A stretch of 62,466 bases of DNA, the filler included, from Sluysia triapertura (Eukaryota): the NCBI GenBank assembly GCA_046118255.1. It is 5 parts of 5 records of this genome, joined end to end, with 100 filler letters (N's around TTAATTAATTAA, not from the genome) between each part and the next. Parts side by side here need not be neighbours in the genome. Positions count along the whole stretch, not along the records: positions 1 to 16,047 come from JBJNIA010212143.1; positions 16,148 to 27,491 come from JBJNIA010185735.1; positions 27,592 to 38,676 come from JBJNIA010189131.1; positions 38,777 to 49,654 come from JBJNIA010192163.1; positions 49,755 to 62,466 come from JBJNIA010087798.1. One strand, 5' to 3'. The translations under genes were made by a program, and so were the position numbers. How positions within the stretch are numbered: position 1 is the first letter of the stretch; each line of letters starts with the position of its first letter. Shown piece after piece: positions 11,509 through 51,635 of the stretch. Under the pieces are notes generated by a model that was given only the letters and a program-made list of their open reading frames with translations, ran no database searches and was not told the origin of the DNA.

Positions 11509-11603
11509 AAACGGCTGGCCCTCGCTGGTAAGTCCAGTACGTTGGTGAACTCACAATATCTTAAATCAACTTTTATTCTATTCATGTAACATTATTTCTC
11601 ACA
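11509..11603 (+). repeat. Family B LTR-like 3' end with splice-donor hairpin (copy 1)
   Basis: ACGGCTGGCCCTCGCTGGTAAGTCCAGTACGTTGGTGAACTCAC...TCTCACA; also at 21343-21438 (-), 32284-32374, 50056-50161 and ~51546-51635 (-). Confidence 0.8.
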
Positions 11604-11609
11604 ATATTG

Positions 11610-13453
11610 ATAACTTTCACCTAAAATTAAGTTCTTAAAATCAAATCAAAAATAAGGAACTTATTTACTATTAAATAAAAAGCAAATTAAAATTTATTGT
11701 TATTAGTATGACAAGATAACTAAAATGACAAAATTAACAATAGAGTTTATAATAATATTAAGAGTACTCAATCTAACTAAAATAACCAGGAGTGTCCCAA
11801 CAAACACTAACAATATCAATATTTATAAAGTTAATTATAATTATGCTACTTAAATATTTTTAGTTAACGTAACCAAGAGTAATCACGATTATAATAAAAA
11901 TTGTTGGGCAGAGATCCTTTCTAAAACTTAACAGTAATATCTAAAGTAGTAATATTTAATGTTTCGATAAAATAAATTTCATATGGTGTTTCCCACAAAA
12001 CTAAAATAAAATAATACAACTTACAATAAAAGTAGCACAATATTAACTTATATTAAAATTATCTTCCCTTTTATAAAATCAAAAATAAAATTAAAATAAA
12101 ATCAATTAATTACCTTATTTTAATTTTAAAATAATAAAATAACAAAAATAAAAAATAAATAAGAACATTACCCTATGCATGGATCTTAACTGGATAATTG
12201 CATAATTGTGTCATTGTTGTGTGATAAAAATTTAGAAATCTTTATTTTATACTAACTTAACATCCAATGAATTCCCAGTCTCACAACCAAACACTCTCTA
12301 ACACAAATCATCCATACGTTTTTGAGAATCAAACCGACAATAACAACTTTGACAACTACATGGTATGGTCTGTCAAACTTCATTAGGTACAAAACATAGA
12401 TATCTCATTTATTATCAACCATCATTTCCTTTTACTCTACTCAATCTACTTTTACTTGAATTACTTCTCATGTTAAAATATTATTAACATACATAAAAAT
12501 AATGAATTTAATTTCACTTTCTATTATTTTTCTACTTTTCACACCAAATTTTCTAATGAAAAATGTTTTAAGATTCTTATTCTCAAACGAACCATTTTAC
12601 AAGCATTTCGAACTCACTTACAGATTCTCCTCTTTCATAGCAATCATCTCATATTCCATTCGTCTAATTTTCATTACCCTAAGTACTAAAAATTCAACAT
12701 TCCATAATTAAAAATTAATTAAAATTTGACTTTGCTCATTATTAAAGCTTTCCTCACATGAACTCGGTCAAACCACATCTACATCGAAAGGTCTTTTCAA
12801 AACAAATACGTACACAGTTTCGTATTTAACATAGCATTCCGCATTCAAAAGTTATTCACAAAAACTTAATTTTTCTTAATTAAATTAATTAAGATTTTTA
12901 ATTAATTAATCTATTTTTAGACTTATTCTTATTTTATGTTTAAAGGTTTTATTAAGGTTCCAAGGCTTTCTAGTAATTTATAAAGCATTAAGGAGGCTCT
13001 AGATGTTTTCACCTTCACCTCTCTGATTCCTTTTTCTATTTCTTCATGTTTATTATTACCACATTAAACTTATTTTTATTATTTTGAACCAAGATTTTAT
13101 TTCTCTAACATTTTGAAAATTTTATAGACTTTATAATATTACTCGAAGAACTATGATGCTTATCAAGGTTTCCAGAATTCTTAAAGGTTAATAGAGTGTT
13201 AGATGACCTCAAAATTAATAAATTCAAAGGTGTTCTAATACCTTCATAAGTTTTTTAAGTCCTCTTCAGGTATTTGGAATGTCAAGGTATTCATTAGCTG
13301 TTAACACTATTATAGATGTTTTATTTTTCATGATTCTTATTCCAACAGTGTTTATCATGTTCAATTCATTACTTTGTATCAGTTTTTCCTTCATTTTATG
13401 ACTTTATATATTTCTCACTCATCTTCAGATCCATATTTGGGTAATCCCAAAAC
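11610..13453 (-). repeat. Repeat family A, ~1.9 kb non-coding dispersed repeat (possibly a long LTR)
   Basis: Colinear with 19259-21340 (inverted) and ~27900-29508, sharing blocks such as 'ttctcctctttcatagcaatc' and 'gcattcaaaagttattca'. No ORF is conserved between copies. Confidence 0.85.
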
Positions 13454-14297
13454 CAACAATTTTGTAGATAAAATCATTATTAAATTTTAAATTGTAATGC
13501 ACCGTAAGACTCATACAAAGGCATTGAGAATATTAAGTTTGATAAAGTTAAACTTTTCTATTTATACAGAACCTTAATAAAATCAAATTAATAATTTCGT
13601 GAACAGATAAATAGATTTAAAATCTTATTAAACTCGCCAGAAGGCGGAATAGGTATAAACAAAGCCTTATTTGAATAAACTTTAGTAACAGTTGAGTAAC
13701 TGGTAACTCTCTAAGTAAATTAACCTCCATCATCGTATGGACTAGCTGTAAATCGTAAAACTTGTTAAACATATGTTTTTAGTAGCACTTAACAATCAGA
13801 AGTCCACATTAATTAATTAAAATTTAAAGATGTCATTTATTTTTGAATTTAGCGATTGAAAATCATTTAATTTCAAATAAACATCACGAGAACAATTTCT
13901 AAGTTAATTCGAGGTTATCATTAGGAGTTTGGGTTAAAACTCGTAGCTAACATAATTAGAGGATTACAAAAGTAACAAAATCAAAGTGAGTATGGACATT
14001 TTACAATTCCTTATAATACAAGAGTAATTTTGGCTAATATTTCTCAACATATAAAATTAAATTATTATTACCACAATCTTGGAATCAACAAATTACAAAA
14101 TAACAAATTTAAATATTTTAGTTTTGGTTTTAAGTTTATTTGTTAAAATACATTGATAACCTTATAATATACTTTAGCGCTACATTATCAAATTACATAA
14201 GACATTTAATTAATTTTGAAGAACATGCATTTTTAAAATTATTGAAATGTATTTTATCACACTCATTGATTTATAGCTTAAGAAACCTATATAAGAT

Positions 14298-15223
14298 ATG
14301 CTAGAAGACGACGATGAATCTGATATTAATGATGTGGATTCAGAAGTATAATAAATTAAATTTATATTATTCAATAGATATATTTATCCATATCAATACA
14401 AAATAAGCAACTTGGGTGTTCATTTTTTGACGCAAAAACTAGTATTATTTATGTTATGGCGGACTTGGAAATTGATAATAAATTCGAAATTATCTTTCAA
14501 AGTAATTCGTAATTTTCTAATAACATAAGCAAATAGTAATTTTAGAAATTAAACCAACTTCGTTTGTTACAACAAAACAAATTTATGAGAAAATGAAAGA
14601 CATATTTAAAGATGATGAGAATGGAATTGAACTTTCAGAAGATGCATTTAAATTTTGTAACTAGTTCAGATATGTCTTATAATTTATCATTACGGAGAAT
14701 TAATGAAATATCTATTCCTTGTATGAAAAACATGTCAGAACAAGAAAAGAATATTTTCTTGAAATCTTTTATACCAACACAATCATATAATATGATTAAA
14801 TCGTTTGGTGGTTTAATAAAATATATCGAGCATAAAAGAATAGGTGTGGAATTGGAAAGTCAGATATCAAAAATACCTATTTTAGATATAAAAGTTTTTA
14901 CTTTGCACGATGCTATGTTTGTAGATGAAAATAGTTTACGTTCACTAAATATTTTTCATAAATTAAGTCATCAATCTGGTTTTAAAAAGGGTCTTAGGCA
15001 GTCGCAATACGTTTCTAAAGAAGGACCTAGTATTTTTAATTTGATCAATGCAACCCATTCGAAAATGGCATCAATTACTTTGGCAAATTGGTTGCGAAGA
15101 CCGTTAATTAAGGAGAAGGATATAAGAATGAGATTGGATGCAGTTACTTTTTTCAGTAAAAGTCAAAATTCAGAGCTTCTTCAAAGTATTCAACAAAAAC
15201 TTAAAGGTATTGGAAATATTAAA
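14298..15223 (+). CDS. MSH5: MutS homolog 5 (meiotic), 5' exons: 14298-14345, 14378-14501, 14537-15223
   Basis: 'IYLSISIQNKQLGCSFFDAKTSIIYVMAD', 'FGGLIKYIEHKRIGVELE', 'VDENSLRSLNIF', 'KEGPSIFNLIN', 'WLRRPL' and 'IRMRLDAVTFF' match the MSH5 N-terminus. GT-AG introns of 32 and 35 nt. One extra base near 14653-14656 breaks the frame. The rest of the gene is not in this contig. Confidence 0.9.
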
Positions 15224-15629
15224 GTAAGGATTAATGTTATTTAAAAGTTTTTTGATAATCTTTTAGTTTTAATAAAATATTTACATAAAGTTAACAAATA
15301 ATGTTTATAATTATTTTTAATCGTAAATTGTTTAAAAGACCGTACCTTAATCGCTTATTTATATTTTAATTGAACAGTCGATTATAATTAAATAAAGTTT
15401 AATATTGCAACAAGCATAAAATTTATTTAATATTCGCATTATTCTTTTTCTGGAGTTAAACTTTTTTTATTTTGTCAAATTATGAAGTTTATGTTAAATT
15501 CGTTGACCAACTTTTGAGAATTTACGTTGGTGTATAAGTTATTTTCCATAACACTTTTTTCAACGGTTAACTTAAATAAACTTTTTGTTTGCTGTATTTA
15601 TCACAAAAAATTTCTAACGTTTATTTCCA

Positions 15630-15817
15630 TAATATAAAATTCGTAATTTTGAAGAATAACTATCTCTGTTCCAATCAATATATTATTACAATTATAAAAT
15701 AACGTTTTGTGGTTTATAGAAATTCCCTGAGATTGTGCCGCTAACTTCACAATTTTGAATATAAAGCGACGGTTTCCCAGTACTTTTCGGACCAACAACA
15801 TCTCCGATAGACTCCAT
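15630..15817 (-). pseudogene. Possible small-GTPase (Rab-like) N-terminal relic
   Basis: 'MESIGDVVGPKSTGKPSL' resembles a P-loop (GxxxxGK[ST], with P at the last position). After a shift, 'QGISINHKTL...EIVILQ' resembles the switch-I/beta2-beta3 region. Confidence 0.3.
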
Positions 15818-16047
15818 TTTAATATTAATGTAAATAAAATATTTATTGTTATAATTTTGAAATACTGAATTAAATAATTTCTTAAAATAAATTACTCAAG
15901 GAAACCTTTCAAAAGATGCATTCAAAAAGAAAATAAAAGAAAAATAAGAAGCTGTGGAATAAACAAGAACATCATAGACGTACAAAGACATGAATTAATA
16001 ATAAGACGAATATAAATATAGAATAAATTTAAGACACATGAATATAT

Positions 16048-16147
16048 NNNNNNNNNNNNNNNNNNNNNNNNNNNNNNNNNNNNNNNNNNNNTTAATTAAT
16101 TAANNNNNNNNNNNNNNNNNNNNNNNNNNNNNNNNNNNNNNNNNNNN
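16048..16147. other. Artificial contig spacer (N-TTAATTAATTAA-N)
   Basis: 100-nt N block with a six-frame stop linker; same structure at 27492-27591, 38677-38776 and 49655-49754. Confidence 0.95.
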
Positions 16148-17006
16148 TGTCTTGAAGTTTGTCCATTAAAAATAGGAGACGGTGAACTATTGTTAATTAC
16201 AATTTGATTTCTATTTGAATTCATTTGATTGGAATTTGATGAACTATCAGAATTTTGATTATATGACTTATATAAATGAAACCATGCTTGAGCCAAATGA
16301 AAATTAAAACCACTCTTAGATACCGGAGCTTCTGTATTTTTAGCACTTAAACCGGCTTGTGGAATTTTAATAGATACTGGTTGTCGTTGGTTTTTACTAC
16401 TTGATTTTTCTGTAGTAGATTGAGGTGCTACGTTAACAACAGGTATTAAATCACGACTTCCGATGTTTCGAATTTTTGTATTTCTTGCCTGTTTTGGATT
16501 AGTGAAAATTGTGGTACTGCTGATTGTCGTACTTGTATGTCTAATTGATGTTACTGTAGGTTTGCGTGTTGTTGACGAGGTTATCTGAGGTATATTTAAT
16601 TGAATGGAATTAGATGTGATACCTTGGAATATGCACGTCCATTCTCCAGGTACCAGATTCTTGTGAAAGGTCAGTAATTTATTTATGTCAAGATAATATG
16701 TTATTCTAACATGATCTGAATCCTTTTTTTACCATAATCGCATTTAGTGATGACCGACAGAGGATGATTGCTGAGGTCGCTACATTCACCATTGACATAG
16801 ATACACACCACAGTACAATTGGCATAACAGTGACCTTCGAAATTAAGCGGTCATTCAAGATAACCTTTAAATTTAGCCACATCATTACCAGTTAAGGAGC
16901 AAACAATTATTTTTTGATTATTTAATTCCCATTGAGCAATATGTACACTACGATAGCAAAAAGCGTCACGAAAAATTAATACAATCAACAACAACTTCAG
17001 CAGCAT
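16148..17006 (-). pseudogene. Secreted/surface protein: signal peptide, Ig-like Cys/Trp domain, Ser/Thr mucin stalk (disrupted)
   Basis: 'MLLKLLLIVLIFRDAFCYR...IIVCSLTG...YLE*P...' then 'KNLVPGEWTCIFQG...ITSSTTRKPTVTSIRHTSTTISSTT' open to the gap. In-frame stops and one frameshift. Confidence 0.55.
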
Positions 17007-17414
17007 ATATTGAAATAATTATTATTTGGAGCCATTATACATTCATCATCATATAACTGAAAGAAGAAAATTATGTTGCTACTATAAGAAGTATTTAATT
17101 ATGCTTTAGAATATTAAATTTTTTTAATTTTTGTAAAAACACTATGTAAAAATAAAGTAATAAAATTAATAAATTGTAATAAAACTATTTGATTTTATAT
17201 AAATTTGTTTAAATGATATTTAATTTATATAAGCAACAGAAGGTCATTTTTTATTACTAAAATTTATAAATTTTTATTAAATAATTTTTATATTTTATTT
17301 TATTATATGAAAGCAAAAGCATATATTTTTTAGTTTATCAATTTTACACAAACAAAATTTTGTATTTTGAAGTTGAAGTATTCAGTGTAATATGAAATTA
17401 TATTACTATATAAA

Positions 17415-18741: not shown

Positions 18742-19258
18742 ATCTATGGGACCCTTGCAAGTTAAAAATTTGTTCTAGTATTTTATTTTTCAAAAATATC
18801 AAGATAAAATATATAATTTTATATAAATATCACTGTAAAAGAAATCATTTAAATAAGGTATAAGTTGGACTCAAAATCTTCACAAATTTCACGCTGGCTT
18901 AAGCCAGTCAAAAGTACCACACAGTTCCATTAGAGTAACATCTAATGAAACTATAGTATATAATTATTTTTATATATTTTATTTTAAATTTTGATAATTT
19001 TTTTGTGTTATTCGTATTTTGAATTAATAGAACTTCATATCGTTATTGTTATAATATTTATTAATAATGTAAGAGTAGTGGTTATATATAAATGATTTTT
19101 CATTTTAATCTGCGTGAATCCATTACGATATTAGACTTACTGACTTAAGGGCTAAAACGTAAGTGACATATAAAATAGTTATTTGGAGGTTTTTATATAA
19201 AATGTCGATGGCCACGGAACTAATATCTACAGAACTAATATGATGATGTCAGAGGTTT

Positions 19259-21340
19259 AGTTGGTATTCCTAATTGTGAATCAGGAAATAAGGGAGAAAC
19301 ATATAGAGCTATAAAATGAAGAGAGAACTGGTATAAATTCATGGATTAAGCATTATAAATATTGTCGAGAAAAGAATCATCATGAAAATAAAAACATTTA
19401 TAATAATTTTAACATCTAAAGAATACCTTGACATTCCAAAGACCTATATGAGGTGTTGAGACCTTGTGGAAGCTTGAAAAGGATTTAGAGGGCCATGAGG
19501 GCGTTGAGGTACCTTTGGGTTTATGAACCTTGAGATCATCTGAGACTTTATTAACCTTTAATCATCCTTGAAACCTTGATAAGCATTTAAGATCTTCGAG
19601 TGATGTTTAAAATATTTGAGAATTAAAATCATTGTTTAAAATAATAAAGATAAGTTTAATATGGTAATTATTAACATGAAGAACAAGAAAAATGAGTCAG
19701 AAAAGTGAAGGTGAAAACATATAGAGCCTCCTGAATGCCTTATTAATTACTAAATAACCCTGGAACCTTAATAAAACCTTTAAACATAAATAAAACTAAG
19801 TCAAAAAATAGATTAATTAATTAAAATCTTAATTAAGAAAAAGTACGTTTTTATGAATAACTTTTGAATGCGGAATGCTATGTTGAATTTGAAACTGTGT
19901 GTGCATTTGTTTTGAAAAGACTTTTCAATGAAGGTATGGTTAGACAGATTTCATGCAAGGAAAGCCTTAATATTGAGCAAAGTCAAATTTTAATTAATTT
20001 TTAATTATGGAATGTTGGATTTTTAATACTTAGAGTGATGAACATGTGATAAATGGATTGCTATGAAAGAGGAGAATCTATTGGTGAACTCAAAGTGTTT
20101 GTAAAATGGTTTATTTGAGAATAAGAAGCTTAAAACATTTTTCATTAGAAACTTGGGTGTGAAAAACTAGAAAACGATTAAATTCTGAAAACTAAAAGTA
20201 AATTATTTATTTTTTATGTATGTTAACAATAATAATGATTTTTATTTTAATGGAGAAGTAATTTAAGTAAAAATAGATTGAGTAGAGTAAATAAAAATGA
20301 TGGTTGATAATAAATCAGATTTCTAAGCTTGACAGACCGTATCATGTAATCGTCAAAGTTGTTGTTGTCGGTCTGATTCTCAAAGAGGTTTGGATGATTT
20401 TTGTGAGAGAGTGTTTGATTGTGAGATTTGGAATTGATTGGATGACGAGAGAGTATAAAATATAGATTTCTAACACACAAGAACAGCAATAACAGAATTA
20501 TGTATTTATTCAGTGAAGATCTATGCATAGAGTAAAGTTTTTAATTTTTTATTCATTTATTTATTTATTATTTTGTCAAAATAATATAAATAATTAACTT
20601 TATTTTAATTTGAGTGATTTTAATATAAGCTAATGGCCTGTTATTTTTAGTTAATTTTAGCTGTTACTAAAATAATTTTCAGAGAGACTCCCTACGCAAA
20701 TTTTTGTTAAGACCATATTTGATTTTTAGTTATTTTTAAGGTAATTAATTGAGAAACATTTTACCTAATATTTGTTAAAGATTCTTTTTAGATTATATTT
20801 GATTTTCAGCTATTTTATAAGGTGAATTGAGACAAATTCCCCATGCAATTTATTCTACCAAAATATTAAGTATTTTATCTTTATAAATTACTGTTAAGTT
20901 TTTCTTTAAAATTATTATTACCAAAGAATTTTATTGTAATCTTAATCACTCGTTGTTACGTTGACCAAACGTATTTAAATAACATAATTACTATTAATTT
21001 TCTAGATATTGATATTATTAGTGTCTGTTCCGTCACTCCTGGTTGCTTTGTCTTAATTAGATTGTAATATCCTTGATTTTATTGTAAACGCGATTGTTAT
21101 TTTTGTCATTTTAGTTGTTCTTAGTATTTACTAAAGATTCTTCTTGATAATAAATTATATTACGTTTTTTTGTTTAAGAGTACATTATTGTCTTAGTTTT
21201 GATTTGATTTTTAAGAACTTAAATTTCGGATAATAGTTATTAATATTATAAAAGATCGTTGCAAAATTATACTTGATATACTGACTATTTAAATTATTAA
21301 GGTTCCTTTAAGCTAACCAAGTTAATATGGAGTTGTAATA
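19259..21340 (+). repeat. Repeat family A copy
   Basis: Inverted homologue of 11610-13453. Confidence 0.85.
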
Positions 21341-21342
21341 AC

Positions 21343-21438
21343 TGTGAGAATAAAAGAAAAGAGAAAAGTTTATTTAAAACTTATTGTGAGTTCACCAACG
21401 TACTGGACTTACCAGCGAGGGCCAGCCGTTGGATTTTT
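21343..21438 (-). repeat. Family B LTR-like 3' end with hairpin (copy 2)
   Basis: Hairpin core identical to copy 1; ends TCTCACA(G). Confidence 0.8.
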
Positions 21439-24860: not shown

Positions 24861-24861
<1 letters not shown>

Positions 24862-27491: not shown

Positions 27492-27591
27492 NNNNNNNNN
27501 NNNNNNNNNNNNNNNNNNNNNNNNNNNNNNNNNNNTTAATTAATTAANNNNNNNNNNNNNNNNNNNNNNNNNNNNNNNNNNNNNNNNNNNN
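27492..27591. other. Artificial contig spacer
   Basis: N-TTAATTAATTAA-N. Confidence 0.95.
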
Positions 27592-27899
27592 ATTGTTGTT
27601 GTCATAAAGAATAATTTTTAAAGTGTAAATATTTTGATTATACAAAAATATATCGAGATTCTGAAGTTATTCAATTATTGGGTTTTGATTAGTAACTTGC
27701 GAAATAAGACACAACATAACCAACTTTGTTAATCAACTGTTATATGTATTTGTTGCGTCTTTGAAAATTTTTAAATTATTTAAAATAAATATCAATTTAA
27801 TTAACTTAAAAAGAATCTCAATTATATAAGTATTCACCAAATCAAATATAAATTTTCAATAACTCTCTTATTTAATATCAATAATTATTCACCTCAAAA

Positions 27900-29508
27900 T
27901 TAAGCTCGTGGAAATCAAATCAATATTAACACAAAAATTTACTGGTTAAATAAAAATCAATTACAAATTAGTATTATTATAAATCTCTATTAAGCAGTAC
28001 TAAAGATGATTAAAATAACGAGATTAATAATAACGTTTATAATAGTCTCTATGATATAACAATCTATCAAAAGAAACCAGAAGTAACGCAACACTAAGAA
28101 AAATAGTAATTATTATTCCCGATTATCAAATATAAGTTTTTCAACGGAGCACAATAACAAAAACTATTTTAATAAAATCCTCAAAAAATATTATTATTTT
28201 TAATCATAAAATAAATTCAAAAATACTTAAAGCATGGATCTTCTCAGTTGCATTATTAATTGTTAATATTTTTGTATTGTTGTTGTTGTTGCGTTGTGTA
28301 AAAAAATTTTAAGTTTTCTTTTTTATATTTTCTCATCATCCAATAATTTCCAATTTTGTGATTAAACATTTTCTCACGCATATCACTGCAACATTCTTTG
28401 AGAATTAATCCGACAAACCTTCAAAATTCATTAAATACAGAACACAAATATTTGATTTACGATTATCTATTTTATTTCTTTATTCTACTCAGTTTACTTT
28501 TACTAAAATTAATTTCCACATTAAAATAATAATCTAATCTAAAAAATAAGTAATTTAATTTTAGTTTTCAAAATTTAATCGATTTCTGGTTTTTCACACC
28601 AAATTTTCTAATGAAGAATGTTTTAAGTTTCTTATTCTCGAACAAACCACTCTACAAATATTTCAAACTCACTTCTAGATTCTCCTCTTTCATAGCAATC
28701 ATCTCATATTCCATTCATTGCATTTGCATCACTCTAGGTATAAAAATTTCAACATTCCATAATTAAAAATTAATTAAAATTTGACTTTGCTCAATAATAA
28801 GGCTTTCATTGCATGAACTCAGTCAAACCATACATTCATATAAAGGTCTTTTCGAAACAAATACACACACAGTTTCCAATTTAATGTAGCATTTCGCATT
28901 CAAAAGTTATTCACAAAACACACTTTTTCTTAATTAAGTTAATTAAAATTTTTAATTAATTAATCTATTTCTATACTTAATTTTATTTTATGTTTAAAGG
29001 TTTTATTAAGGTTTCAAGGTTATTTAGTAATTTATAAGGCATTCAGGAGGCTCTAGATGTTTTCACCTTCACCTCTCTGATTCCTATTTCTTCTTCATCA
29101 TGTTAATTATTACCATATTTAACCTAACTTTATTATTTTAAACAGTGATTTTATTTCTTTAAAATTTTAAAGATTTTAAATACTCTATATGGTTAATCGA
29201 AGAGTTTAGATGCCTATCAAGGTTTCAAGAATGCTTAAAGGTTAATAAAGTCTCAGATAATCCCAAGGTCCACAAGCTCAAAGGTATTCCTAATAGCTTT
29301 AAATGTTTTTCAAGTCCTCTTCAAGCAGCCATAAGGGTCTTTGAAATGTCAAAGTATTCTTTGGCTGCTAAAATTACCATAAATGATTTAATTTTTACAC
29401 TATCATTTCAACGCTGCCTTCAAACCCTCACTTGGTATTGGTTCTTTCTTAATTTATAGTTACATGTTTCTAAGGCATTTTCTGATACACAATAGGGCAA
29501 TCCCAACA
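27900..29508 (-). repeat. Repeat family A copy
   Basis: Colinear with ~11900-13453; ends ...GGCAATCCCAACA, the reverse complement of the TGTTGGGATTG head. Confidence 0.85.
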
Positions 29509-30109
29509 ATTATGCTAATTGAATAACAACTGAATGTGTCTTACCAAGATTATACTAAAAGTTCTTTTTCAAAAAATTTTACAAAAACCAAATAATATAA
29601 TAAAAATATGTATTTTAACAATTCAACCTCGGTTGATTGTTTTCGTATTTTAAAAATATATTACGCAACCATTTTAAGATAACTTTGAGTATATTTTAGT
29701 ATAATTTTCTTATAATAAATACTTTAAATTTATATATATATATATATATATTACTTGGTATTGCTTAATATCATAAAAATTATTTCTCCCAAAATTGTTG
29801 CTTCCCAAAAACTTTCTGAAAATTTTTGTTGAATTTTACTTGTGTTTTTTCTTAAAAAATTAACGCTATTAATATTAACTTACCTATCGTCATATTGAAA
29901 TTAATTTGATATATTAAGTAAAACAAATTTTTCTTTAGAATAAAGAATTTTTTTTAATGATTATTTTTTAAAAATTTAATAAAAATATTCATTTAAATTT
30001 TATTTAGAATATTTAAATTAATTTTGAAATTTATTAAAATTTATTGTTAGGTTTAAATTAAAGATTTAAAAATATTTGTTCAGATTTTTATCTAGAAAAC
30101 TTTTATAAC

Positions 30110-31100
30110 AATTATGAGTTTGTGTCAACTGGGTCCGCCTATAATCTAGGTTTTATATCTCGCGGAAGACTTAGTTATAGGATTATATTGTGTCAAGAAA
30201 CTACGAAAGATTCCTTATTATCTGATAATGGAGGGTCTCTATGTGTATGCTTTGTCTTATTCTACTTCTTACACTGTGCTACTGTAAATTAAACTTTAAC
30301 TAATAAACCAAAAACAAAAATAATACTCCACGTATTCTACGAAAATCTATTATATAAATAAACTAGAGTTGTTTATAAGTATTGGTACACAAAGAAATGT
30401 AATGATAATATACACAAAAATAATAATAATAATCAGTTTAATAACTTTAGGATTTCTCCTAAACAAAATATAATGATTTTAAAAAGTGATTTTAACCCAG
30501 GTGAATACTTGGGTGTGTTAAAATTTGATATTATTTTACGTCGATTTTAATACAGTGTATCACTGTATGAAACTTAGCATAAATAGCTTACGGTTTAAAT
30601 ATTTATCCGGTTGCAAATTCTCCAATAATAAGTTTCCTTGGCAGCGATCCCAAATATTGTTAATCCCGATAATTGAATACTTTCTCCAAAGAAATATGAT
30701 CCAATCAAGATTTCACGTTCAATAATAATTTTTGTAAATGACGATTCCCAACAAATTTTCCTCGAACAATGATTCTCAATAAATTTTCCTCGAATGACGT
30801 TCAATAATAACTTTTGTCTCAATGTGAGCTGTCTCCAAAAAGTGTTTCAAAATATTTAAAATTATTCTTGTGTTTATTACTTGTGTCTTGTAAGCCAAAA
30901 CCGTTAGCTATTTATAGAAAGTTTTTTTATTGACGTGTAGCAAGATTAAATTAAAAGATTATAAAATAATTATTAATTTTGAACTTTTAAAAAATGTAGA
31001 TATGTAAATGTAGGTTTTTTTAATATTAATAGATAATTATTTTACTTGTAAATAAAATATTATCTTTTACATATAATTGTTTATGCATTTTAAAATAATT
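30110..31100 (-). mobile_element. Solo or partial LTR related to the gypsy element at 8852-10017
   Basis: Shares the 30131-30181 hairpin, 'gagggtct', 'ggatttctcc', 'gaat.cttggg' and a minus-strand TATA at the equivalent position. Boundaries approximate. Confidence 0.65.
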
Positions 31101-32283
31101 ACTTTTGTATTAAAAATAGATAATTCTTTTTTGTACTGTAAAATGTAATGTCATCAACACAAAATATTGAAGGTCAAATATCGAAGTCAGATTAAATTAA
31201 ATTATATCGATTAAACATTACATTAAATTATATCAATTAAATCACATTAAATTATATTTAAGTTAAGAAAATATAAATCATAATTTGGAAATAATTAATT
31301 TAATTATATGGAATAACTAATTTATGTGGAATAATTAATTTAAATTATTTGAAAAATTTAAGAAAATTATTTTGGAAAATTTATAAATTAAAGAATCAAC
31401 GATTTGAAACATCATCCAGGTTAATATTATTATTGTTAATATTATTATCATTTTATTATTGATATTCATGTAAATATTATTATTAAAATATCATAAATAT
31501 TATTAAAATTAAAATTCCTACTTGTTTTACTTATCTGGTCATCTTGTTTTACTTATATTCAAGGACATTCTAATTAGATATAAAAACCCTACAATTAAGC
31601 ACTACTACACACAATATTTTCACACAATTTTGCATTCAAGATTTTTCAAATCTCGATATACCATACCAAGTGATTTTTTAGAAGGAGTTCTATAACTGCA
31701 AATTCAATTATATTCACAATTTTTACAAGTCTTTGCGATTTTTGGAAAGAATTATCCAGTTGTATCGAAGTTTCAAAGGAAGTCTTGTTTTTTCGTTAGT
31801 TTTTACTATAAGTTTCTCGGCAACATATAAAGTTGCTTAACCAAAATCTGACTTAAACTTTATTTTAATTTTCCCGCTATCGTTTATAGATAGCGTATTA
31901 AAATCATTACAAAATTTGTTTTTAGATTATTCGTGAAATAATCTCCTCTAACATTTTTATTATTTTATTATAACCTATTTGATTATTATATTTGTATACT
32001 CATATTCTATTAATTAATAAAGTTTTTCTTACTTTAACATTTTATTATAATTTTAATATTAAATTACGTATCGGTTCCTTCGTGAATCTTATTAAACTCA
32101 TTAAAAGGTTCACTTTCATTGAACCTCATTAAAATACCGAAGTTAAAAAAGGTTCGTATAAGCGAATCTAATTAAAATCACTTTATATTATTTTTAAAAT
32201 AATTAAAATTTGTAAAATTCCATTTGACCTCCTAAAATATCAATTATTAAATTATTAAATTTGATTTTTATTAAATAACTTTA

Positions 32284-32374
32284 AAAATCCAACGGTTGGC
32301 CATTCAGTTTGTAAGTCCAATACGTTAGTGGACTCACCTCTTATAGTTTTTATTCACACGTAAATTTCTCACAG
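32284..32374 (+). repeat. Family B LTR-like 3' end with hairpin (copy 3), abutting the hAT relic
   Basis: CCAACGGTTGGCCATTCAGTTTGTAAGTCCAATACGTTAGTGGACTCAC...TCTCACAG. Upstream 'aaggttc...gaacc..attaaa' repeats are shared with 49880-49960. Confidence 0.75.
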
Positions 32375-33845
32375 CAATTTAAAAAATTCAACATTCGGAA
32401 TTACAGTGAAAACAATCATTTATAAGGTCAAATATTTTTCTAGGACAGGTACTTCCAACAAGGTACTGAAATCTGTCGGTGGCTCAAGATCTGAATTACG
32501 GAAGCATGTAAAAAACAAAAAACTTTAAAACATTTGATAAAAAGGAAATCTGCCGATGAAGTTATAGCCAAATTGGCTTGCAAAGATGGTTTAAGTTATC
32601 GGCAATTTGCTTGCAGTGAATTCATTCAAAGTAATTTGATGAAAGATGTGTACGACAAAAAGCCGCTAACTTCTGTAAATGGCTTGAAAAATTGAATACT
32701 TAACTTTTATGAAATAAAAAAACTGAATTAACAGAATATTTTTCTAAGCAGATTAAGGCCAGGATTCGTTATTCAATTTCACTGGACGAGTATGCATCAT
32801 CCTAGAATATTCGGTTTATGAATATTAATGTGCACGATATGATTAAGCACTGATTTCTTGGTTTAGTTCACTTTTGTAAGTCATTGAAAAGTTATAGAAT
32901 CACAGATATCGTGAATTTGGATTGAATTTAAATTGCGATATCGCCGGAGCAACATCCAAAGGTGCTTCTGTCATGATCAAATTTGGCAAGGAAAATGAAT
33001 TTGCTCATGAACTCTGTTTAGCCAATTGTTTTCGTTTAACAGTATGATATCTTTTGTACAAAGAACAAAAAACTTGAAAAAGATAATGAAAATGCACTTT
33101 GAAAGATAATCAAGAAATTATTGAAAACTGGAACGATTACGATAGCCCCTTAGACATGGCTTTTGACTCTGAAATAAATTGTAATTCTTTATATTAATGA
33201 ACCTTTTGGTGAAATAATTTCAAAAGTTAGAAGAATATGCAAAGTCATCTGCAAATAAAATCGCCATTGAAAAACGACTATTTGCAAGAAATATTTAAGA
33301 ATGAATCAAAAGGAAAAGAATTCAAACTTATGTTAGTCATTTCCACAAGATGGAATAGTATTATTACAATAATATATAAATTCATAGAATTATAATGTTG
33401 TATTCCTCGTTCTTTAAGAGTTTGTGAAATCGGTGAAACTATATCAGATGAGGAATTTGAATCTTTGGATGTTCTTCTAAACACACTCCGTCCTTTTGAA
33501 ATAGCTATTAAAGGGCTTTCACGAAAGTCGCTTCACTATTAAAAGGTGAAAATTCAGTTAAATCTATTTTGAAAGAATTAAATAGTCTCAGTTTCGTCTT
33601 AGGCACAGGACTAACGAAAAATTTGTTTGAAAGGTACAATTCGCGACGGATGAATGAATTTATCTCGAAGATCCCGATAAAGTAAGAAAAACTATGTGGG
33701 AGTATAGAACTCTGATACCATTTATTTGAAACTTTATAATTATTTAACTACTTAATTTATATGATCTTATTAAAAAATTGTAAATGTAAAACATAAAACA
33801 TATATTAACTAAAAATATGAAGAACTAAAATTTTCATTAAAATTT

Positions 33846-34199
33846 TTATTTAAGATACAATAAATAAAGTTGTTTAATTGCGATTGAATGTGCCATTGTA
33901 GGTATTTTACTTTGAGGACTGAACAAAATGCGATCTTGTTGGTTATTCGTAAATGCGTGGCAATTGATGTATGATTTTCCCAACTCTGGTATTGTTCGTA
34001 AACTTGACAGTAAGTCGTAGATTCGTTGACCATGATCATTGACATTTGGCTTGGAGTAAACAGAGCGTTGGAGATAAAAAGGCCCATGGGAATAGATACA
34101 TTTATAGCCGTATTTGATGCATTTGTCTGCACCATAATTACATAGTGCAATTTTATAATGTCGTGGATGGAATTTGTTTTCGATGTTTCTGATATTCAT
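33846..34199 (-). CDS. CCCH zinc-finger protein fragment (copy 2), inside the hAT insert
   Basis: 'RHYKIALCNYGADKCIKYGYKCIYSH' is C-x6-C-x6-C-x3-H. The downstream 'RIYDLLSSL' is shared with copy 3. Confidence 0.7.
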   Translation of the reverse strand: MNIRNIENKFHPRHYKIALCNYGADKCIKYGYKCIYSHGPFYLQRSVYSKPNVNDHGQRIYDLLSSLRTIPELGKSYINCHAFTNNQQDRILFSPQSKIPTMAHSIAIKQLYLLYLK

Positions 34200-34559
34200 A
34201 CGCGCGTATTATTGATTGTTTTCGCTTGTCATACTACTCGATCAGTACATTCGAAAGAACTTGCTTGTTACTAATTTGTTCAGTAGAAAAATTAGGCGTT
34301 TGCATTATAGTTGAAATTGAATGAGCAGTTCGTGCAAGGTTTAGAACAACACCGATGAGTATTATTTGAACTAGAAACATCTAATAAAACCGAAACATTC
34401 ATGATATCAATATTGGTTGTGGGCAACGATCTACATTGATGTTGAATATTGTGAATACTAATAATTAATAATGATAATAATAATGCTATTAATAAAATGA
34501 AATAAAATAATATTATAAAAAAATTAATAATAATAATAATAAAATAAAATAATAAATAA

Positions 34560-34855: not shown

Positions 34856-36455
34856 AAATGAGTTAAAGTTTTAAGTGATAGAGTTGCCCACCAGAAACTA
34901 ATTGCTCAACACTTTTTTTTGTCAAATTTATGAAACAATAAAGAGACTGGCGAAAGCAACTTTTAACAGGCTTTATCAATCTGACGATCTCCAAACATAA
35001 ACGGATAATAATAATGAATCAAATGATCCGATGTCTCATTGAAGTGGTTAACTAGAGTAAGAAATCCAATCCCACTTCTCTATTTACTATTGATTTAGAC
35101 AAGGACCTAAAGTTATCTGAAGCAACAGGGAAGTGATGTGAGCATTAAGAAAAGGTATACCGAAGCCTGTGCACAATTGTAGAATCTCAACAACAAGTGT
35201 AGAATCTCAAAGAGCTTTATCATCTGTAGGATATTTTTTAACAAAGATTCGTTCTCGGTTATTGCTTAAAACACTAGATGTTTTGACCTTTTTGAAGTCA
35301 TACTTTGCAAATATTGAGAAATAAAGAACCGTTATTCTTTAAACAGGCGAAAAATATTTTTTAAATACTAAATATAACATTTTTATATTTTTAGTCTTAT
35401 TACTACATTGAAGTTAGTTTATTTAATTAAAGTGTGTATAACAGAAAACAATTTATACAAAAGTCCAGTAGGCACTTTATTTATAAAAGTGTTCGGAAAT
35501 CGGTAAAAACCGAGATTTAATTTTTCTGGCGGTAATTTACCGGGTACAAAATTTTCGGTACTTTGCAAACTCTAATACGAACTACCTGATAAATGTCGAT
35601 CGAGGTATATTATTTGGTGTAAAATGAATAAAAATGAAAATTAATTACAAATATTGACATTATCATAAAAATAGATTATATAACGAAATATCTAGTGAAA
35701 AGTTATGCAAAATTTTACGAATCATAAATAAATGTTTATAGCAACTACAAAGTAACATTTCGAACAGGAAGAGCATTGTACCAGTAAGTCCAAAAAACCA
35801 TTCTCGGAAGTAGCATACTGTTGCAGTACAATAAATCCTAGGAATATGAATATAAATAACCACGTATTAAAGTAAAAAATAAAAATCTTATGTAGATTAA
35901 ATCTAATCAATCAAATATAAACAAAAATTAGAATAGTTTGAATAGTCAAAGCTTGAAGTTAAAATAATGTAATAAATATCTCAAATTTGGTTTATATGAA
36001 AATGTGGAAAGATAAATTTCCACTGATATATCTATGAATCTCCTAATTCTGATGATAGTAGAAAGTCTATAAATTTATATCTATTTGAACATATATACTT
36101 CATTTTTATTGCACAATAATCTATTATAAATAAAATTAATGCACAAACGCCTTGCCAGAGCATACCCGAAAATTTTTTTGTTTTCATCTTGTTAATTCCG
36201 AACGATTATCGTTTTATTTCAAAATATTTATTCAAGCCCTGTAAATGTTCAAATGATTTAATATATTTAAATTTATTCTAAATTATAAAACAAACAGAAA
36301 AATTAGAAAAAATTAGGAATCAAGAAATTTATTAGTAGTTCATTAGTATTTCATAATTATGTAATATATACATGTATTCTCATTAATTTAAAAATAATTT
36401 GGTACTAAAATTTATTATTGATTAATTAATATTGTTATTAATTTATAAATCTAAC

Positions 36456-38676: not shown

Positions 38677-38776
38677 NNNNNNNNNNNNNNNNNNNNNNNN
38701 NNNNNNNNNNNNNNNNNNNNTTAATTAATTAANNNNNNNNNNNNNNNNNNNNNNNNNNNNNNNNNNNNNNNNNNNN
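38677..38776. other. Artificial contig spacer
   Basis: N-TTAATTAATTAA-N. Confidence 0.95.
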
Positions 38777-39106
38777 CTTATTTGTTACAGGAGTGCCAAC
38801 AATACGTTGTAAGACGCTTACTGTAACCGAACCCTGCTAAAAAATATTTTGCCGTAGGTTAAGTGTTAGAAAAAACCACAGCAATATCATTAACCGTGAT
38901 TTTAATTCTTGAACATTTTAAAGGTTCCAAACATTTTACAAAGTTACTCGAATATCTTAAAAGTTTGTCAAGGTCTCAAAGTTTCCAAAAGATTAACAAA
39001 GTTTAAATAATCCCAAGGTTCAGAAATTCAAGGGTATCTTCATACTTCAAGACATATTTCCAAGACTTACTTAAACCTTCATAAGAGTCTCAATACACTA
39101 CAAAGG

Positions 39107-44800: not shown

Positions 44801-44856
44801 AGTAATAAAAGTACGGTGCTTGACTGAGACACCATACTAACAAGCAAAATCGTATA

Positions 44857-46243: not shown

Positions 46244-46280
46244 GGTCGCATGACTCAGTGATAAAGCATCTGATTTCGGT
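46244..46280 (+). pseudogene. 5' half of a tRNA-Arg(TCG)-like gene, truncated in the anticodon loop
   Basis: GGTCGCATGACTCAGTGATAAAGCATCTGATTTCGG resembles metazoan tRNA-Arg-TCG (GGCCGCGTGGCCTAATGGATAAGGCGTCTGACTTCGG). Shares the 5' flank aaattgttagac with the fragment at 62110. Confidence 0.5.
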
Positions 46281-46490
46281 TTTCCATCTTCATTAAAAGG
46301 ACGAAAATCATACTTAATTAAGCATAATTTACAACATATATGTCCACATTCTGTCCTGCTTTATTTATAACATTGTTGCATATATTGCATTTAGGTAAAT
46401 CAGAGTTTTCAAAAAGATAGCAATAAGTTAAAGTGTTAATTTGAGTTAGCTCCTTAATCAATCTGTGTTCTGATGGTAGGCAACAAAACT
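46281..46490 (-). pseudogene. C3HC4 RING-finger relic
   Basis: 'LPKCNICNNVIK*SRTECGHICCKLCLIKY' has CxxC...CGHxxCxxC; it carries an in-frame stop and lacks the final CxxC. Confidence 0.65.
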
Positions 46491-49400
46491 ATGATATAGA
46501 AAGAAGAATATCGAAGTTTACGGAGAAGTGAAATTAGATTTTATAGAAATTTCATTGTCATCATAAAATCGTCTTCGTGTTTAATTTTAAGTTTAAGTTC
46601 TATCTGTGTTGAATTATTAATGTATTTCGTTTGATGTTTTGTTGATTTTTTGATGTTCTGTTTATTTGTTTATATTTGGAATTTTAAATAAAAAGGTTGA
46701 ACCACCAAAATATAATTTTTATGAATACAATTTTAATTTTTTTATGCAGGAGAATAAAATCCTACATATAGCTCGTGATAATTCAACAAAGAGAGACTAA
46801 AATTTATCAATTTATCGTTAAGAATAAATGTTATTAATTTGTCGACCCTTATTGATTTTGTAACGTCACTGTATAAATCACCAATTCGCCACGATGGTTA
46901 AATATTAAAATATGTAACAAATATTATTAATTTATCAAATGTAGTATATGAAAACTGAAATTTATCTCGATTGTTACACAATGTAAGATATTACTGTTCT
47001 TTAATGCAATAATAAGCACTTACGTACTGTAAAATCATCAAAAAATTATATACAAATACAGATTTAATTCATTACATTCCTAAAATTATACTACATACTA
47101 AAATTGTATTCTAAAAATTCGTTACAAAGTTATACTTTTTATAAATCTTAAATTTCATTTGTTATTTATTATGCTCTTTCATGGATTAGAAAATTAAATT
47201 AAGTTTATTAGATAATTAAATTACCATTTATATTATATTTAGACTTAATATTTATTTCGATTTAGAAAATTAAGTACTTATTGAAATTAGAATTAATTTT
47301 ACAACCAGTAGCGTTTATTAAACACATACATAAAAAAACACATACTCAATGGCTCACCATTAATTTATTCACATAAGAATTTTAATATTTATTAACAAAA
47401 CATTTTAAGATTTATAAATAATTCAAACCTTCATTATTTATTATAACATTTTTGTGGCTCACCATATTATTTCATTCAAACATTTCGTTAACATTCGTCG
47501 AACATTTTTAATTCATACATTCGGTAATTCATTACATTTTACTTTCATACATTAAGTTTAATTTTTAGCATATGTTTAACATATCGTTTAATTTCAAACG
47601 ATAACATTTTAATTTCAGCAATAACATTATCAATATAATTTCTTCAGCAGTAAAGTATACATTGACCTTTAAGGTCATGTATTTTATTTTATGGTTCTAT
47701 GAAATACTATGAAATACTATGATACTATGAAACAAATTTTAAATATTAGTAAGCCGTTAAGACAAGAAAAAGAATTTGTATTTTCTGCATTATAATTTAT
47801 CGTCGGCAGTTAAATATATGCATAATGATATATAGAGAAAAATATCCAGTGCTTGAGTAAATAATTATCATGTAGAAAGAAATATGAAGAAACATGGTTT
47901 TTAAGTTGTCTAATATTTTACATGAAACGAAAAGTTTCAAAATAGTGGTGTAATGCAAATATTATTATATTTAGATGTGTAATACATAATATTATATTTA
48001 GTAAATTTAATTTATCGCTTTAAAATATTAAGTAGTAATGATAATAATATTAATAATGTGTAGTTGGAATTATAATTATAGTTACTATATGATATCGAAT
48101 ATTATTAATTGGAATTAGCATTGACATTGTTATTAATTAAATTATTACTGAATATTATTACTGAATTTGGAATTAACATTGACATTGTTATTTTGTATAT
48201 TACTGAATTTATTATGATATTGAATTTCTGACATTATTATTGGAATTATAGAATTGTAACTATAAAAGGCCCTCAAATATAAAATACAATTACAAGAATT
48301 ACAAAAAAAGTAGAAACTGAAAATTATATTGAGAAATTTTGATTGATTAACAAGGTAACTGTAATTATATCTGTTTAATTAATTTATGAATAAATTTTTT
48401 TCTAAAATTTTATTTCAAAAGAAAATTAAAGTGTTAAATTAAAATTAAGTATCAACAAAATTTATATTAACCCAATCTATAATTAAAGACATTAACCAAT
48501 TTAGTAACTTTAATACAATGTCCCATTTTTAAATAACCATTCGAATTCAATAATGATTACATATTTTTGATCTTTAGTTAATAAAAAGGGTTGATAGTAG
48601 AGTCTACATAATTATATAAGCAATCACAAAAGGATTTAATAAGTTTAGAATCTATTACCGCCTAAAGAGTTAAAAAGGTTTTTAAGCATTTCTATCCTGA
48701 ACAACGAGGACGAGTATAACGATTCATACCTCCAGTTAAGCGTAATATAAAGTGATAATATTAATTGAGAAGTTCGGAATAATTATAAATTCTACAAAGA
48801 GATTTGAATTAATATTAAAGAACAAAAGTTTTAAAGTATAAACAGTATTCAGGCATATTTAAATTTGATAAAGGTTTGATAAAATAAAATTAAAGAGATA
48901 ACGCATAAAATTCTAAAGACTTAGAAGAAGCCAAGATAAATTTTACATTACATTAACATACAAACCCACTTTATTAGAGTGGTATTAAAAATAATGTTGT
49001 TTCTATGCAAAAAGTTCGAATCTGTGAACAGCATAATTTGTAAAATTGATATATTTTCTAGTTCTGAATCACAAGCTGATATGAATATAATATATTTTAT
49101 TGGTGATACACAATTCAAAACAAGCAAATATAAACATGACTGTTTAAAATGTACAATAACTAAACTTTAATAGTTTTGCTAATGCCGACATTCATCCAAA
49201 CGCATTTTTCATTTCTCCAAGTTTAAAGCGATATAAACATATTTCGTTTTTTGCTAATCTTTTTGAAATGAAATAAAATGGAAATGCATTGAATCAGCTA
49301 GAAAATTTGCTTAGTTAAATAAATTTTAAAATGAAATTTAGCAAAGGATATTGGGTTTATATATCTAACGACATGTACTAGGTAGACGGTGTCACAATGG

Positions 49401-49654
49401 CGAAGCATAACAGTTCTTGAATAACTCGAATAAGAAAAAAATGTCGAGGAAAACCATAGTCAACGTTCTACTCAATAAATATCCAATAGAATTCAAAGAC
49501 AACTTAAACTACTGTCAGAATTATTAATTCAATGTATAAAATTGTATATTTGAATTGTTATTTATTTTATTACAAACTATTTTATTATCATTATTATATT
49601 ATTATTAAAAAAGTATTAATTTACAAAATAATTAATTTAAGTAAATAAAAAATT

Positions 49655-49754
49655 NNNNNNNNNNNNNNNNNNNNNNNNNNNNNNNNNNNNNNNNNNNNTT
49701 AATTAATTAANNNNNNNNNNNNNNNNNNNNNNNNNNNNNNNNNNNNNNNNNNNN
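49655..49754. other. Artificial contig spacer
   Basis: N-TTAATTAATTAA-N. Confidence 0.95.
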
Positions 49755-50055
49755 CATTATATTTATCTTATTATATAATATTATTTGTATTAGTTTGTCA
49801 TTTTTTACTAATAAACATATTATTTTAATTCGTTTTTAATTCAATCTAAAATCCAATCTAAAATTCAATCTAATTCAACGAAGAATATGTTCGTTGTAAG
49901 AACCTGATTAAAATCATAATAGTAATTTTAAAAGGTTCGAAGTAAGAACCACATTAAAATCTCGACAAATTAAAATATAAGTTTGAAGTAAAATCCTCTT
50001 TAAAGAATTAGTATTATTATAATCAAACTATTTTTTACAAACTCTTATCTAGGAT

Positions 50056-50161
50056 AAATCCAACGATTGGCCGTTAATTCAGTAGGTCCAATACGTTGGT
50101 GGATTCACCAGTTTTAATTTTTTATTTTGTACATTTTTCGTGACATCTACTTTTCTTACAG
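50056..50161 (+). repeat. Family B LTR-like 3' end with hairpin (copy 4)
   Basis: CCAACGATTGGCCGTTAATTCAGTAGGTCCAATACGTTGGTGGATTCAC...CTTACA, followed by a PBS. Confidence 0.75.
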
Positions 50162-50168
50162 AATAAAC

Positions 50169-50186
50169 TGGTGCCCAGAGTGAGGA
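50169..50186 (+). promoter_or_regulatory. Primer binding site, elongator tRNA-Met type
   Basis: TGGTGCCCAGAGTGAGGA is complementary to TCCTCACTCTGGGCACCA, similar to metazoan tRNA-Met(e) 3' ends (TCCTCACACGGGGCA-CCA). It lies 8 nt after ...TACA. Confidence 0.65.
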
Positions 50187-51545
50187 CCAGTAAAGATTTT
50201 GACTAGTAATTTATAATATAAAGTAAATTTTGAAGAATTTAAGGATTTTAGAAAGGAATTAAGAGGATTCTGACACATAATTGATTAAGAAGAAGCTTAA
50301 GATTAAATTTTGTACTAATCCCATTTTTCTTGAAGAATTTAGTAAGGTTTTAAGATTTTTAATAGGATATTAAGAAGAATTAACTATTTTCGAAGCATAA
50401 GTAACCAAGAATTATTAAGAATAAGATTTACTCTTTACGTTAATAATTAAAAATAGATTAAAATAAATTATTAACTAATTTTTTAAATTATAATCATTGA
50501 TTTTTCTAATATGCTTTCTAATATTAATAATTTGATTTTCAACAAATTTACAACAATAATTTGATGTATTGATGTTAATTTTATAATTTGATGTACTGAT
50601 GTTGGTGTACAACAATATTACTATTTTGATGTACTGATATTTTGATGTACTGATGTTGGTCTGTACAACAGTATCTTAAGCATTTGATACTAATTATAGA
50701 GAGGGCCACATATGAACTGATTGGATCAATTGGGCAGAAACCACCCGAAGTACAGTCACTTATTGAAATTACAGACTTATTAATAAATTTGGTAAATGTA
50801 TAAAATGCTGCTCTCACTTAAATTATAACGAGAGGCCCTTTTAAAATGTACAATATAGTTAAATGGATGCATAAATTTATATTTATTATTTTAAGATAAT
50901 ATAAATTTATCTTATATTATGTGTTATATAATTTCCACGAAGATAGTTGTTGCTCTAAATGATTTTGAAATGCTCTTTACCTTTGCAGGGTCTGTTGAAA
51001 ACATTACTTTGTTGATTTTACATATATTGTGTGATGTATTAGTTGACTCCAAAATCGTACTTATGACATAAAGGGTTGTAGTCCTAATAATTGGTTCCAT
51101 AATGATTAGCTCCACTAAACAAACTGCATCAACCATAGTTAAGTGTATTTAGATGAATCCTGAGGTCTGATAGTCTTAACAGAAAAATATTTTCGCCAAA
51201 TCAGTTAATAAATACAATCCTACCTACAAGTGTTTCTTCTAAATCAATAATCATTTTATGAATTGTACTTAAATTTTTTTTATTATTTTACATAAATAGA
51301 TAAAAATGTTTTGCACCTGGGATTGGGGGCTTATGTTGTTTATTCGTGCGCGTAGTTCGTAATGTAATATGGATTAATAATGGGTAATTAATTGGCTCGG
51401 TTTTTATCATGGATTAAATCGTTCTGATTGGTTTATTTAGTTTATTAATTTGTATTTGGTGTTTGTCAAGTCGTCACCTCATATTTTATGATTTGCATTT
51501 TTAATTCATATAGTTATATAACATTTGATAATTTAATTTATTTTC

Positions 51546-51635
51546 TAGGTGAGATAAATATAGTAGAATAAAGATTAAAAGCGTGAGTTCATCAACGTAC
51601 TTGGACTTACCTGTTAGGGCCAACCGTTGGATTTT
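51546..51635 (-). repeat. Family B hairpin (copy 5)
   Basis: The minus strand reads CCAACGGTTGGCCCTAACAGGTAAGTCCAAGTACGTTGATGAACTCAC...TCTCACCTAG. Confidence 0.75.

Follow-up and report, generated by a model that had tools for sequence, protein, structure and literature searches.

A hairpin-borne splice donor motif followed by a tRNA-complementary 8-mer in putative long terminal repeats of Sluysia triapertura

The DNA analyzed here, a 62,466-nucleotide (nt) stretch from Sluysia triapertura (GenBank assembly GCA_046118255.1) that we call the window, is AT-rich eukaryotic sequence (GC content of ∼24%) with many decayed repeats. It holds copies of a short hairpin unit in which a U1-type splice donor motif, GTARGT, is followed by a GTGRRYTCAC-type motif. 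A preliminary description recognized five copies, and all five were confirmed, with the donor GT at 11528 (copy 1, plus strand), 21412 (copy 2, minus), 32311 (copy 3, plus), 50082 (copy 4, plus), and 51610 (copy 5, minus) and with both motifs present in each. The pattern of the 3′ part of the unit matched four times in the window (0.00 expected), copy 5 escaping it through a one-base insertion. A sixth, diverged copy (copy 6), at 19068-19162 on the minus strand, had been overlooked; it was found by a covariance-model search (match at 19108-19167, minus strand; E value, 0.055). Because the 3′ arm of that model was one column off, so that it acted mostly as a sequence profile, copy 6 owes its detection mainly to sequence and not to pairing. 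A pattern without structural terms (donor, 12 to 15 nt, then GRAYTCAC) matched at exactly six places in the window and at none in 60 null windows. A corrected covariance model found no seventh copy in the window, its next match being the antisense of copy 3 (E value, 0.044). The unit patterns matched nothing in metagenome contigs or viral contigs, and the comparison with Rfam covariance models that had been proposed assigned the unit to no family, the sole match being a chance one elsewhere in the window (E value, 0.56). Sequence words sought in published papers met only primers, by chance, or nothing. The analysis draws on the window sequence and on published papers, and copy counts refer to the window only.

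The six copies are laid out alike. Copy 1 (11506-11603, plus strand) has a hairpin with a damaged outer 5′ arm, a site at 11547-11554 that resembles the retroviral primer activation signal (PAS), and a U-rich tail that ends in TCTCACA with no AG after the end. Copy 6 has a diverged hairpin (TTACG/CGTAA and TTAG/CTAA), a donor GT at 19140, a PAS-like site at 19121-19114, and a TCTTACA end, likewise with no AG after it; a TATA-like TATATAA lies ∼30 nt 5′ of its hairpin. Copy 2 (21343-21432, minus strand; PAS-like site at 21393-21386) and copy 3 (32289-32373, plus strand; PAS-like site at 32330-32337) each consist of the hairpin, the tail, and a TCTCACA end followed by G. Copy 4 lies within a putative long terminal repeat (LTR) of 266 bp (49895-50160, plus strand) that runs from TGTAAGAA to TTCTTACA with 8-bp inverted ends; its hairpin spans 50060-50099 and its PAS-like site 50101-50108. 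Copy 5 (51548-51630, minus strand) has the one-base insertion in its hairpin, a CAG/GTAAGT donor that matches U1 at 9 of 9 positions, a PAS-like site at 51590-51583, and a TCTCACC end followed by TAG. The conserved core of the unit measures ∼55 nt, and the 150-nt upstream flanks of copies 1 to 5 agree at ∼50% of positions in all 10 pairs (85 to 96 of 164 to 179 positions). Copies 1 and 2 had been described as alike in the core with diverged flanks. The core likeness (48 of 52 positions) and the divergence upstream (85 of 179, as in other pairs) hold; the downstream flanks are in fact related, both abutting one repeat family at 74 to 76% identity. Copies 3 and 4 share upstream repeats, GAAYC-NN-ATTAAAA and AAAAGGTTC (32084-32177 and 49900-49959), that look like U3 enhancer repeats and were found upstream of none of the remaining four.

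In a manual registration, the stem has six outer and four inner pairs with a small internal loop. Across the six copies, the inner eight pairs are all of the Watson-Crick type (48 of 48 cells), all 10 pairs are formed in 55 of 60 cells (a score reached by 53 of 20,000 shuffles), and four stem columns change on both sides. In an unfitted MAFFT alignment of the six, both partners change in 6 of 11 pairs, which none of 500 shuffles equaled, and slid controls were 15 to 48% paired. The compensatory changes that had been claimed among the original five copies did not hold up: both partners are changed in a single stem pair, and the score was reached in 144 of 500 shuffles, which is not significant, in a test run with pair 19-35 and helix 2 misregistered. 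Nor is the outer stem CCAACG/CGTTGG perfect in every copy, as had been stated. It is so in copies 2 and 4 only, copy 1 reading AAAACG, copy 3 CGTTAG, and copy 5 CGTTGA with an extra G, and the inner pair said to alternate between CC/GG and CA/TG is kept in four of the five copies and broken in one. Folding z-scores were −3.0 for copy 4 and −2.0 for copy 2. One diverged copy thus lends the hairpin structure good support, and the folding energies lend it weak support. Two other folds were considered and set aside: a second hairpin within GTGRRYTCAC has only two to four pairs, in competition with the main stem, and a conformer pairing the donor with the PAS-like site is 1.8 to 8.9 kcal/mol less stable than the minimum free energy (MFE) structure in copies 1 to 5. 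The MFE structure of copy 3 pairs its own PAS-like site. In copy 4, a 9-base stretch (50106-50114) overlapping that site can pair with the spacer and the start of the primer-binding site (PBS) described below (50165-50173), a possible masking fold like those of retroviral U5-PBS stems; a longer fragment adopts another fold.

GTARGT is kept in all six copies, and the adjoining loop varies in length (9 to 11 nt) and in sequence. With the U1 5′ end as we take it to be, copies 1 to 6 pair at 8, 8, 7, 7, 9, and 7 of 9 positions, the three bases just 5′ of the GT being CTG, CTG, TTT, TCA, CAG, and TCA. Contrary to what had been supposed, the donor is mostly exposed and not buried in the stem: pairing probabilities at positions +2 (T) and +3 (A) are at most 0.06 in copies 1, 2, 4, and 5 and 0.22/0.11 in copy 3. 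The MFE structure of copy 6 does pair the donor TAAG with its loop (frequency, 0.14). After the donor come a U-rich tail and TCTYAC, the latter in six of six copies; the tail is 46 to 57% T and at most 8% G in copies 1 to 5 and is A-rich (47%) in copy 6.

Copy 4 ties the unit to an LTR. Its TTCTTACA is the perfect inverse of the TGTAAGAA 266 bp upstream and is followed by 8 nt and then by a PBS of 18 nt at 50169-50186, which had been reported and was confirmed; we take it to be that of elongator tRNA-Met. Because of this inverse match and of the PBS 8 nt on, TCTYAC in copy 4 is read as the LTR end. The corresponding ends are TCTYACA in five of the six copies (copy 6 judged by eye) and TCTCACC in copy 5. 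The lack of a PBS after the other five copies is expected for solo or 3′ LTRs. An 11-mer resembling an iMet-type PBS at 33720 (minus strand) falls inside a transposase-like coding region and was attributed to chance; it cautions that a short match to a PBS may arise fortuitously.

The PBS of copy 4 fixes nt 59 to 76 of its tRNA, and with them a T-stem 3′ strand of CTCAC and a 5′ strand of GTGAG. In tRNAs, TTC universally follows the T-stem 5′ strand. The deduced GTGAG and this TTC therefore predict the partner motif GAACTCAC, the reverse complement of the deduced T-arm, and GAACTCAC is the motif found directly 3′ of the hairpin; the T-arm expected in the host tRNA would be GTGAGTTC. The GRAYTCAC site, 19 to 20 nt past the GT, pairs at 8 of 8 positions with the deduced T-arm (nt 49 to 56) in five of five copies, and the 8-mer of copy 6 is that of copy 4. 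All changes in the variants GGACTCAC and GGATTCAC are compatible with G-U pairing, the variable positions being only A or G opposite U55 and C or T opposite G53, both wobble-compatible. As background, the 8-mer class occurs at 43 of 124,932 positions, and a T-arm match lies 30 to 100 nt upstream at 24 of 901 TGG sites; both PBSs of the window, that of copy 4 and the one described next, are among the 24.

A second putative LTR family in the window serves as an internal control. Its first copy (8856-8960, minus strand) has a hairpin at 8960-8916, a PAS-like site GGACCCGA at 8914-8907, a tail, and a TGAACA end; a PBS, presumably of the tRNA-Lys type, follows at 8832-8849 (minus strand), 57 nt past the PAS-like site. 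Behind it lies a gag-like open reading frame (ORF) (7635-8609, minus strand) that falls in an ESM Atlas retrotransposon gag cluster (0.94) and in Pfam matches only Arc capsid (E value, 0.051); no pol was seen behind it in the window. The second copy (30077-30182, minus strand) has the same hairpin block (50 of 52 positions identical), the PAS-like site GGACCCAG, and a TGAACA end, without a PBS. This 52-nt block is unrelated to the unit and 96% identical between copies while their flanks diverge; it folds as a hairpin, poorly in the second copy, where one pair is broken. Its loop holds GTGAGA (GCGAGA in the second copy) and TATAAAA, a possible weak donor and a possible TATA or poly(A) signal. 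GGACCCGA and GGACCCAG pair at 8 of 8 positions with the T-arm deduced from the second family's own PBS (two of two copies). On that T-arm the 8-mers of the first family pair at 7 of 8 (−6.2 to −7.3 kcal/mol, versus −8.2 to −11.9 on their own), and the second family at its PAS position pairs at most at 6 of 8 with the T-arm of the first. The distances are alike in the two families: 60 and 57 nt from PAS-like site to PBS and, to the LTR end, 35 to 52 nt in copies 1 to 5 and 51 to 52 nt in the second family. What can be read directly from the sequence is the existence of six copies, their stem, the complementarity to the T-arm in both families, and the PBS of copy 4. Nothing argues more strongly than this second family for reading the five PBS-less copies as LTR remnants that share the primer class of copy 4.

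The unit is real and under selection. The proposal that it is a structured RNA in the R/U5 region of an LTR gains support from the sixth copy, from the PAS-like match tied to the PBS, and from the parallel second family. We think it probable that the unit corresponds to the R/U5 region, conserved in the LTRs of a tRNA-primed LTR retrotransposon family, with the tRNA binding at the PBS and the PAS and with a U1-type site displayed by the hairpin. The leader parts would run in the order hairpin, U1-type site, HIV-like PAS, U-rich tail, and LTR end, copy 4 being a 5′ LTR that retains its PBS and the remaining copies presumably orphan LTR remnants. The element RNA would form a hairpin of two helices, with GTARGT displayed in the loop and 3′ flank and the 8-nt PAS at once after it; the primer tRNA would bind both PBS and PAS; and the U1-type site may be the major splice donor or may, as in foamy virus, restrain polyadenylation within the 5′ LTR. 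That the RNA folds in this way in vivo, pairs with the tRNA, binds U1, and exerts any control over splicing or polyadenylation is what we infer from these features, and the PAS step appears to be the better supported half of the mechanism, ahead of the donor role.

Several observations weigh against this reading. A clear LTR start is present in copy 4 alone, none convincing being found for copies 1 to 3 and 5, and only one of the six copies has a PBS. None of copies 1 to 5 has a convincing target-site duplication, and around copies 1 to 3 and 5 no candidate combined a duplication with good inverted ends; old or truncated copies may have lost it. No gag or pol of this family occurs in the window. 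The T-arm was deduced from the PBS on the assumption of a Watson-Crick T-stem, host tRNA genes not being seen, and the second half of the PAS-like 8-mer, the complement of TTC, is common to all tRNAs. The 8-mer changes along with the PBS (two PBSs with two matching 8-mers) in a sample of two families. The outer two stem pairs hold in 7 of 12 cells, and covariation reaches significance through copy 6 alone, in a shuffle test that ignores relatedness. Folding z-scores are near zero for copies 1 (+0.02), 3 (−0.5), 5 (+0.3), and 6 (−0.01), and the sense fold is not more stable than the antisense in four of six copies. The copies share no poly(A) hexamer at a fixed position, which leaves a U1/poly(A) step without direct support. 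Finally, G follows the terminal CA in three of the five CA-ending copies, against a background of 0.12 (P of ∼0.014, calculated by hand).

This last excess would favor a real acceptor at the LTR end, and it keeps alive an alternative that we regard as unlikely but worth retaining, in which the unit is a regulated mini-intron of the LTR, the GT being spliced to an AG at the LTR end (CA/G) 64 to 80 nt away. Splicing in copy 4 would excise the PAS and the U5 end and keep the PBS, turning genomic RNA into a translation-only mRNA. The unit had been read earlier as a small intron, which is possible: the donor is strong and present in all six copies, a pyrimidine tract follows in five, and the first AG more than 40 nt past the GT comes after 71, 64, 80, and 66 nt in copies 2 to 5. 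In copies 1 and 6, however, it comes only after 104 and 108 nt, the tail of copy 6 is the A-rich one, and the TCTYAC common to all six copies is in copy 4 the LTR end; U5 would in any case be expected to have a U-rich tail and to finish in CA. The ORF continuity at 14346-14529 and 59670-59703 gives three host introns, which have weak donors and measure 28, 32, and 34 nt, half the length of the proposed one. The duplication expected of a self-regenerating intron is also absent, the longest words shared between exon sequence and tail end being 5 to 7 nt of A/T. A mini-intron would be compatible with a PAS and differs from our preferred reading in the job of the donor. A fuller version, doubtful when its three parts are taken jointly, is that these invertebrate LTR retrotransposons pack a leader switch of the retroviral type into ∼100 nt, in which the hairpin-presented donor is spliced to an acceptor formed by the terminal CA/G of the LTR, removing the PAS and the integrase end; that this splice divides transcripts into mRNA and reverse-transcribable genome; and that orphan LTRs lend a 23- to 25-nt leader exon to neighboring genes.

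The inverted arms could instead act at the DNA level, as sites for a dimeric or Myb-type factor in the LTR promoter, with the RNA fold and the donor incidental; CAACGG resembles what we take to be a Myb site. That the sense fold is not more stable than the antisense in four of six copies would fit a DNA-level inverted repeat, as would the weak z-scores. Copy 6, however, alters both arms yet retains pairing, donor, and PAS-like site, and the wobble-type variation of the 8-mer and the G-U/A-U position point to the sense RNA; we consider this explanation very unlikely. We find it highly improbable that the copies are spliced-leader RNA genes or cassettes derived from them, with a 23- to 25-nt leader and a donor 3′ in stem-loop I, trans-spliced to mRNAs. 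The spacing from AATCC to the GT is 23 to 25 nt in copies 2 to 5, the junction is G/GTA in three of six copies, and AACGGTT also occurs in a flatworm leader (PMC3795323, Table 1). By features taken from the available part of that paper, the spliced-leader-like donor that had been suggested nevertheless fails: an Sm-type site (AT4-6G) is present in one of six copies and a WWG exon end in none, the leader sequences differ (copy 6 lacks the AATCCAACG start), and there is neither a three-stem fold nor an Rfam match. The copies are dispersed, not arrayed, and a spliced leader would leave the PBS-matched 8-mer and the parallel second family unexplained.

Each part of the unit has retroviral precedent, as far as the available portions of the cited papers extend. 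The PAS of HIV-1 (human immunodeficiency virus type 1) occupies 8 nt of U5 and base pairs with nt 48 to 55 of the tRNA once the PBS has opened the T-stem (PMC3675109), and the PAS has been termed conserved among all Retroviridae (PMC1865047). The unit shares with it an 8-nt site 5′ of the PBS that is complementary to the 5′ T-arm strand, adjoins a stem able to mask it, and tolerates G opposite position 55 (PMC3675109, PMC1865047, PMC11251516). The unit differs in belonging to LTR retrotransposons, in facing nt 49 to 56 instead of 48 to 55, in being fused to a donor-bearing hairpin, and in being deduced from sequence; copies 5 and 6 carry a further G able to pair with a C48. Foamy virus has a donor inside R (PMC3694450), like that of the unit a U1-type site in an LTR stem-loop, 5′ of a U-rich stretch and the LTR end, and by its position in the LTR present in both LTRs. 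In contrast to what that source describes, the unit shows no conserved poly(A) hexamer and no refolding between 5′ and 3′ copies, and the element is not a spumavirus. MaLR LTRs have a conserved donor near the 3′ end (PMC5538554), and cestode solo LTRs (ta-TRIM) splice into downstream genes (PMC4558846); a GTAAGY near the LTR 3′ end and the capacity of solo LTRs to splice downstream are thus shared with MaLR/ERVL and ta-TRIM elements. MaLR LTRs differ in being described as without an acceptor, and the available part of PMC5538554 mentions neither a covarying hairpin nor a PAS.

Other retrotransposon RNAs also pair with the primer tRNA outside the PBS, through boxes 0, 1, and 2.1 in yeast Ty1, a bipartite PBS in yeast Ty3, and a second PBS in Drosophila gypsy (PMC3592414, PMC5371799, PMC1635307). 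As described there, these contacts add to a PBS that is short and are located next to it or close to the 3′ end, whereas here a full 18-nt PBS is combined with a retrovirus-type T-arm site 57 to 60 nt upstream. Spliced-leader RNA genes, as presented in the accessible part of PMC3795323, share a short putative exon and a donor 3′ in a hairpin and differ in their conserved Sm site, WWG end, three-stem fold, and constant leader, the leader of the unit being variable. A literature search by title and start of abstract found no U5 PAS in animal LTR retrotransposons, a subject that Beerens and Berkhout 2002 may cover, and the available text of a miniature-annelid paper (bioRxiv 10.1101/2020.05.07.078311) held nothing bearing on the unit.

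The rest of the window contains host genes (MSH5-like with MutS_III, CEP19, Exo70, and a mitochondrial carrier) and other repeats. A repeat of ∼1.76 kb with TGTTG...CAACA ends, 68 to 88% identity between copies, and no Pfam-supported ORF occurs at 27751-29508, 11603-13459, 19261-21343, 2588-2957, 38892-39037, 10532-10632, and 62348-62466; hairpin copies 1 and 2 each take the place of its left end, the point differing between the two, and copy 6 sits immediately past its right end. A broken hAT-like transposase (32364-33700 and 35142-35574) lies directly 3′ of copy 3 in the same sense. In Pfam it matches Dimer_Tnp_hAT at an E value of only 0.14, and further motifs are, we presume, those of hAT transposases; one terminal-repeat-like end was found at 35574, without a matching left end, and a CCCH-finger fragment interrupts the element. 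Three diverged, UNK-like CCCH zinc-finger fragments (5424-5828, 33849-34208, and 53485-53895, all minus strand), two below the Pfam cutoff and the third without a Pfam match, lie among repeats and are possibly cargo of a mobile element. Two TGGTGAGCCA motifs at 47359 and 47464 (minus strand), 105 nt apart, resemble what we take to be the start of a tRNA-Trp-type PBS. Runs of N with TTAATTAATTAA in the middle, at 16049-16148, 27493-27592, 38678-38777, and 49656-49754, are a scaffolding artifact.

Two families whose 8-mers track their own primers amount to a natural swap experiment of PBS plus PAS, and they suggest a simple rule for any transposable element library: use the PBS to deduce the T-arm, then search 55 to 60 nt upstream. 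If the doubtful joint reading of the splice were true, then together with the PBS-matched PAS in two families it would mean that the leader layout of PAS and donor predates retroviruses. If the correspondence between 8-mer and PBS is general, the PAS itself would predate retroviruses and would offer a marker for assigning orphan LTRs to their primers.

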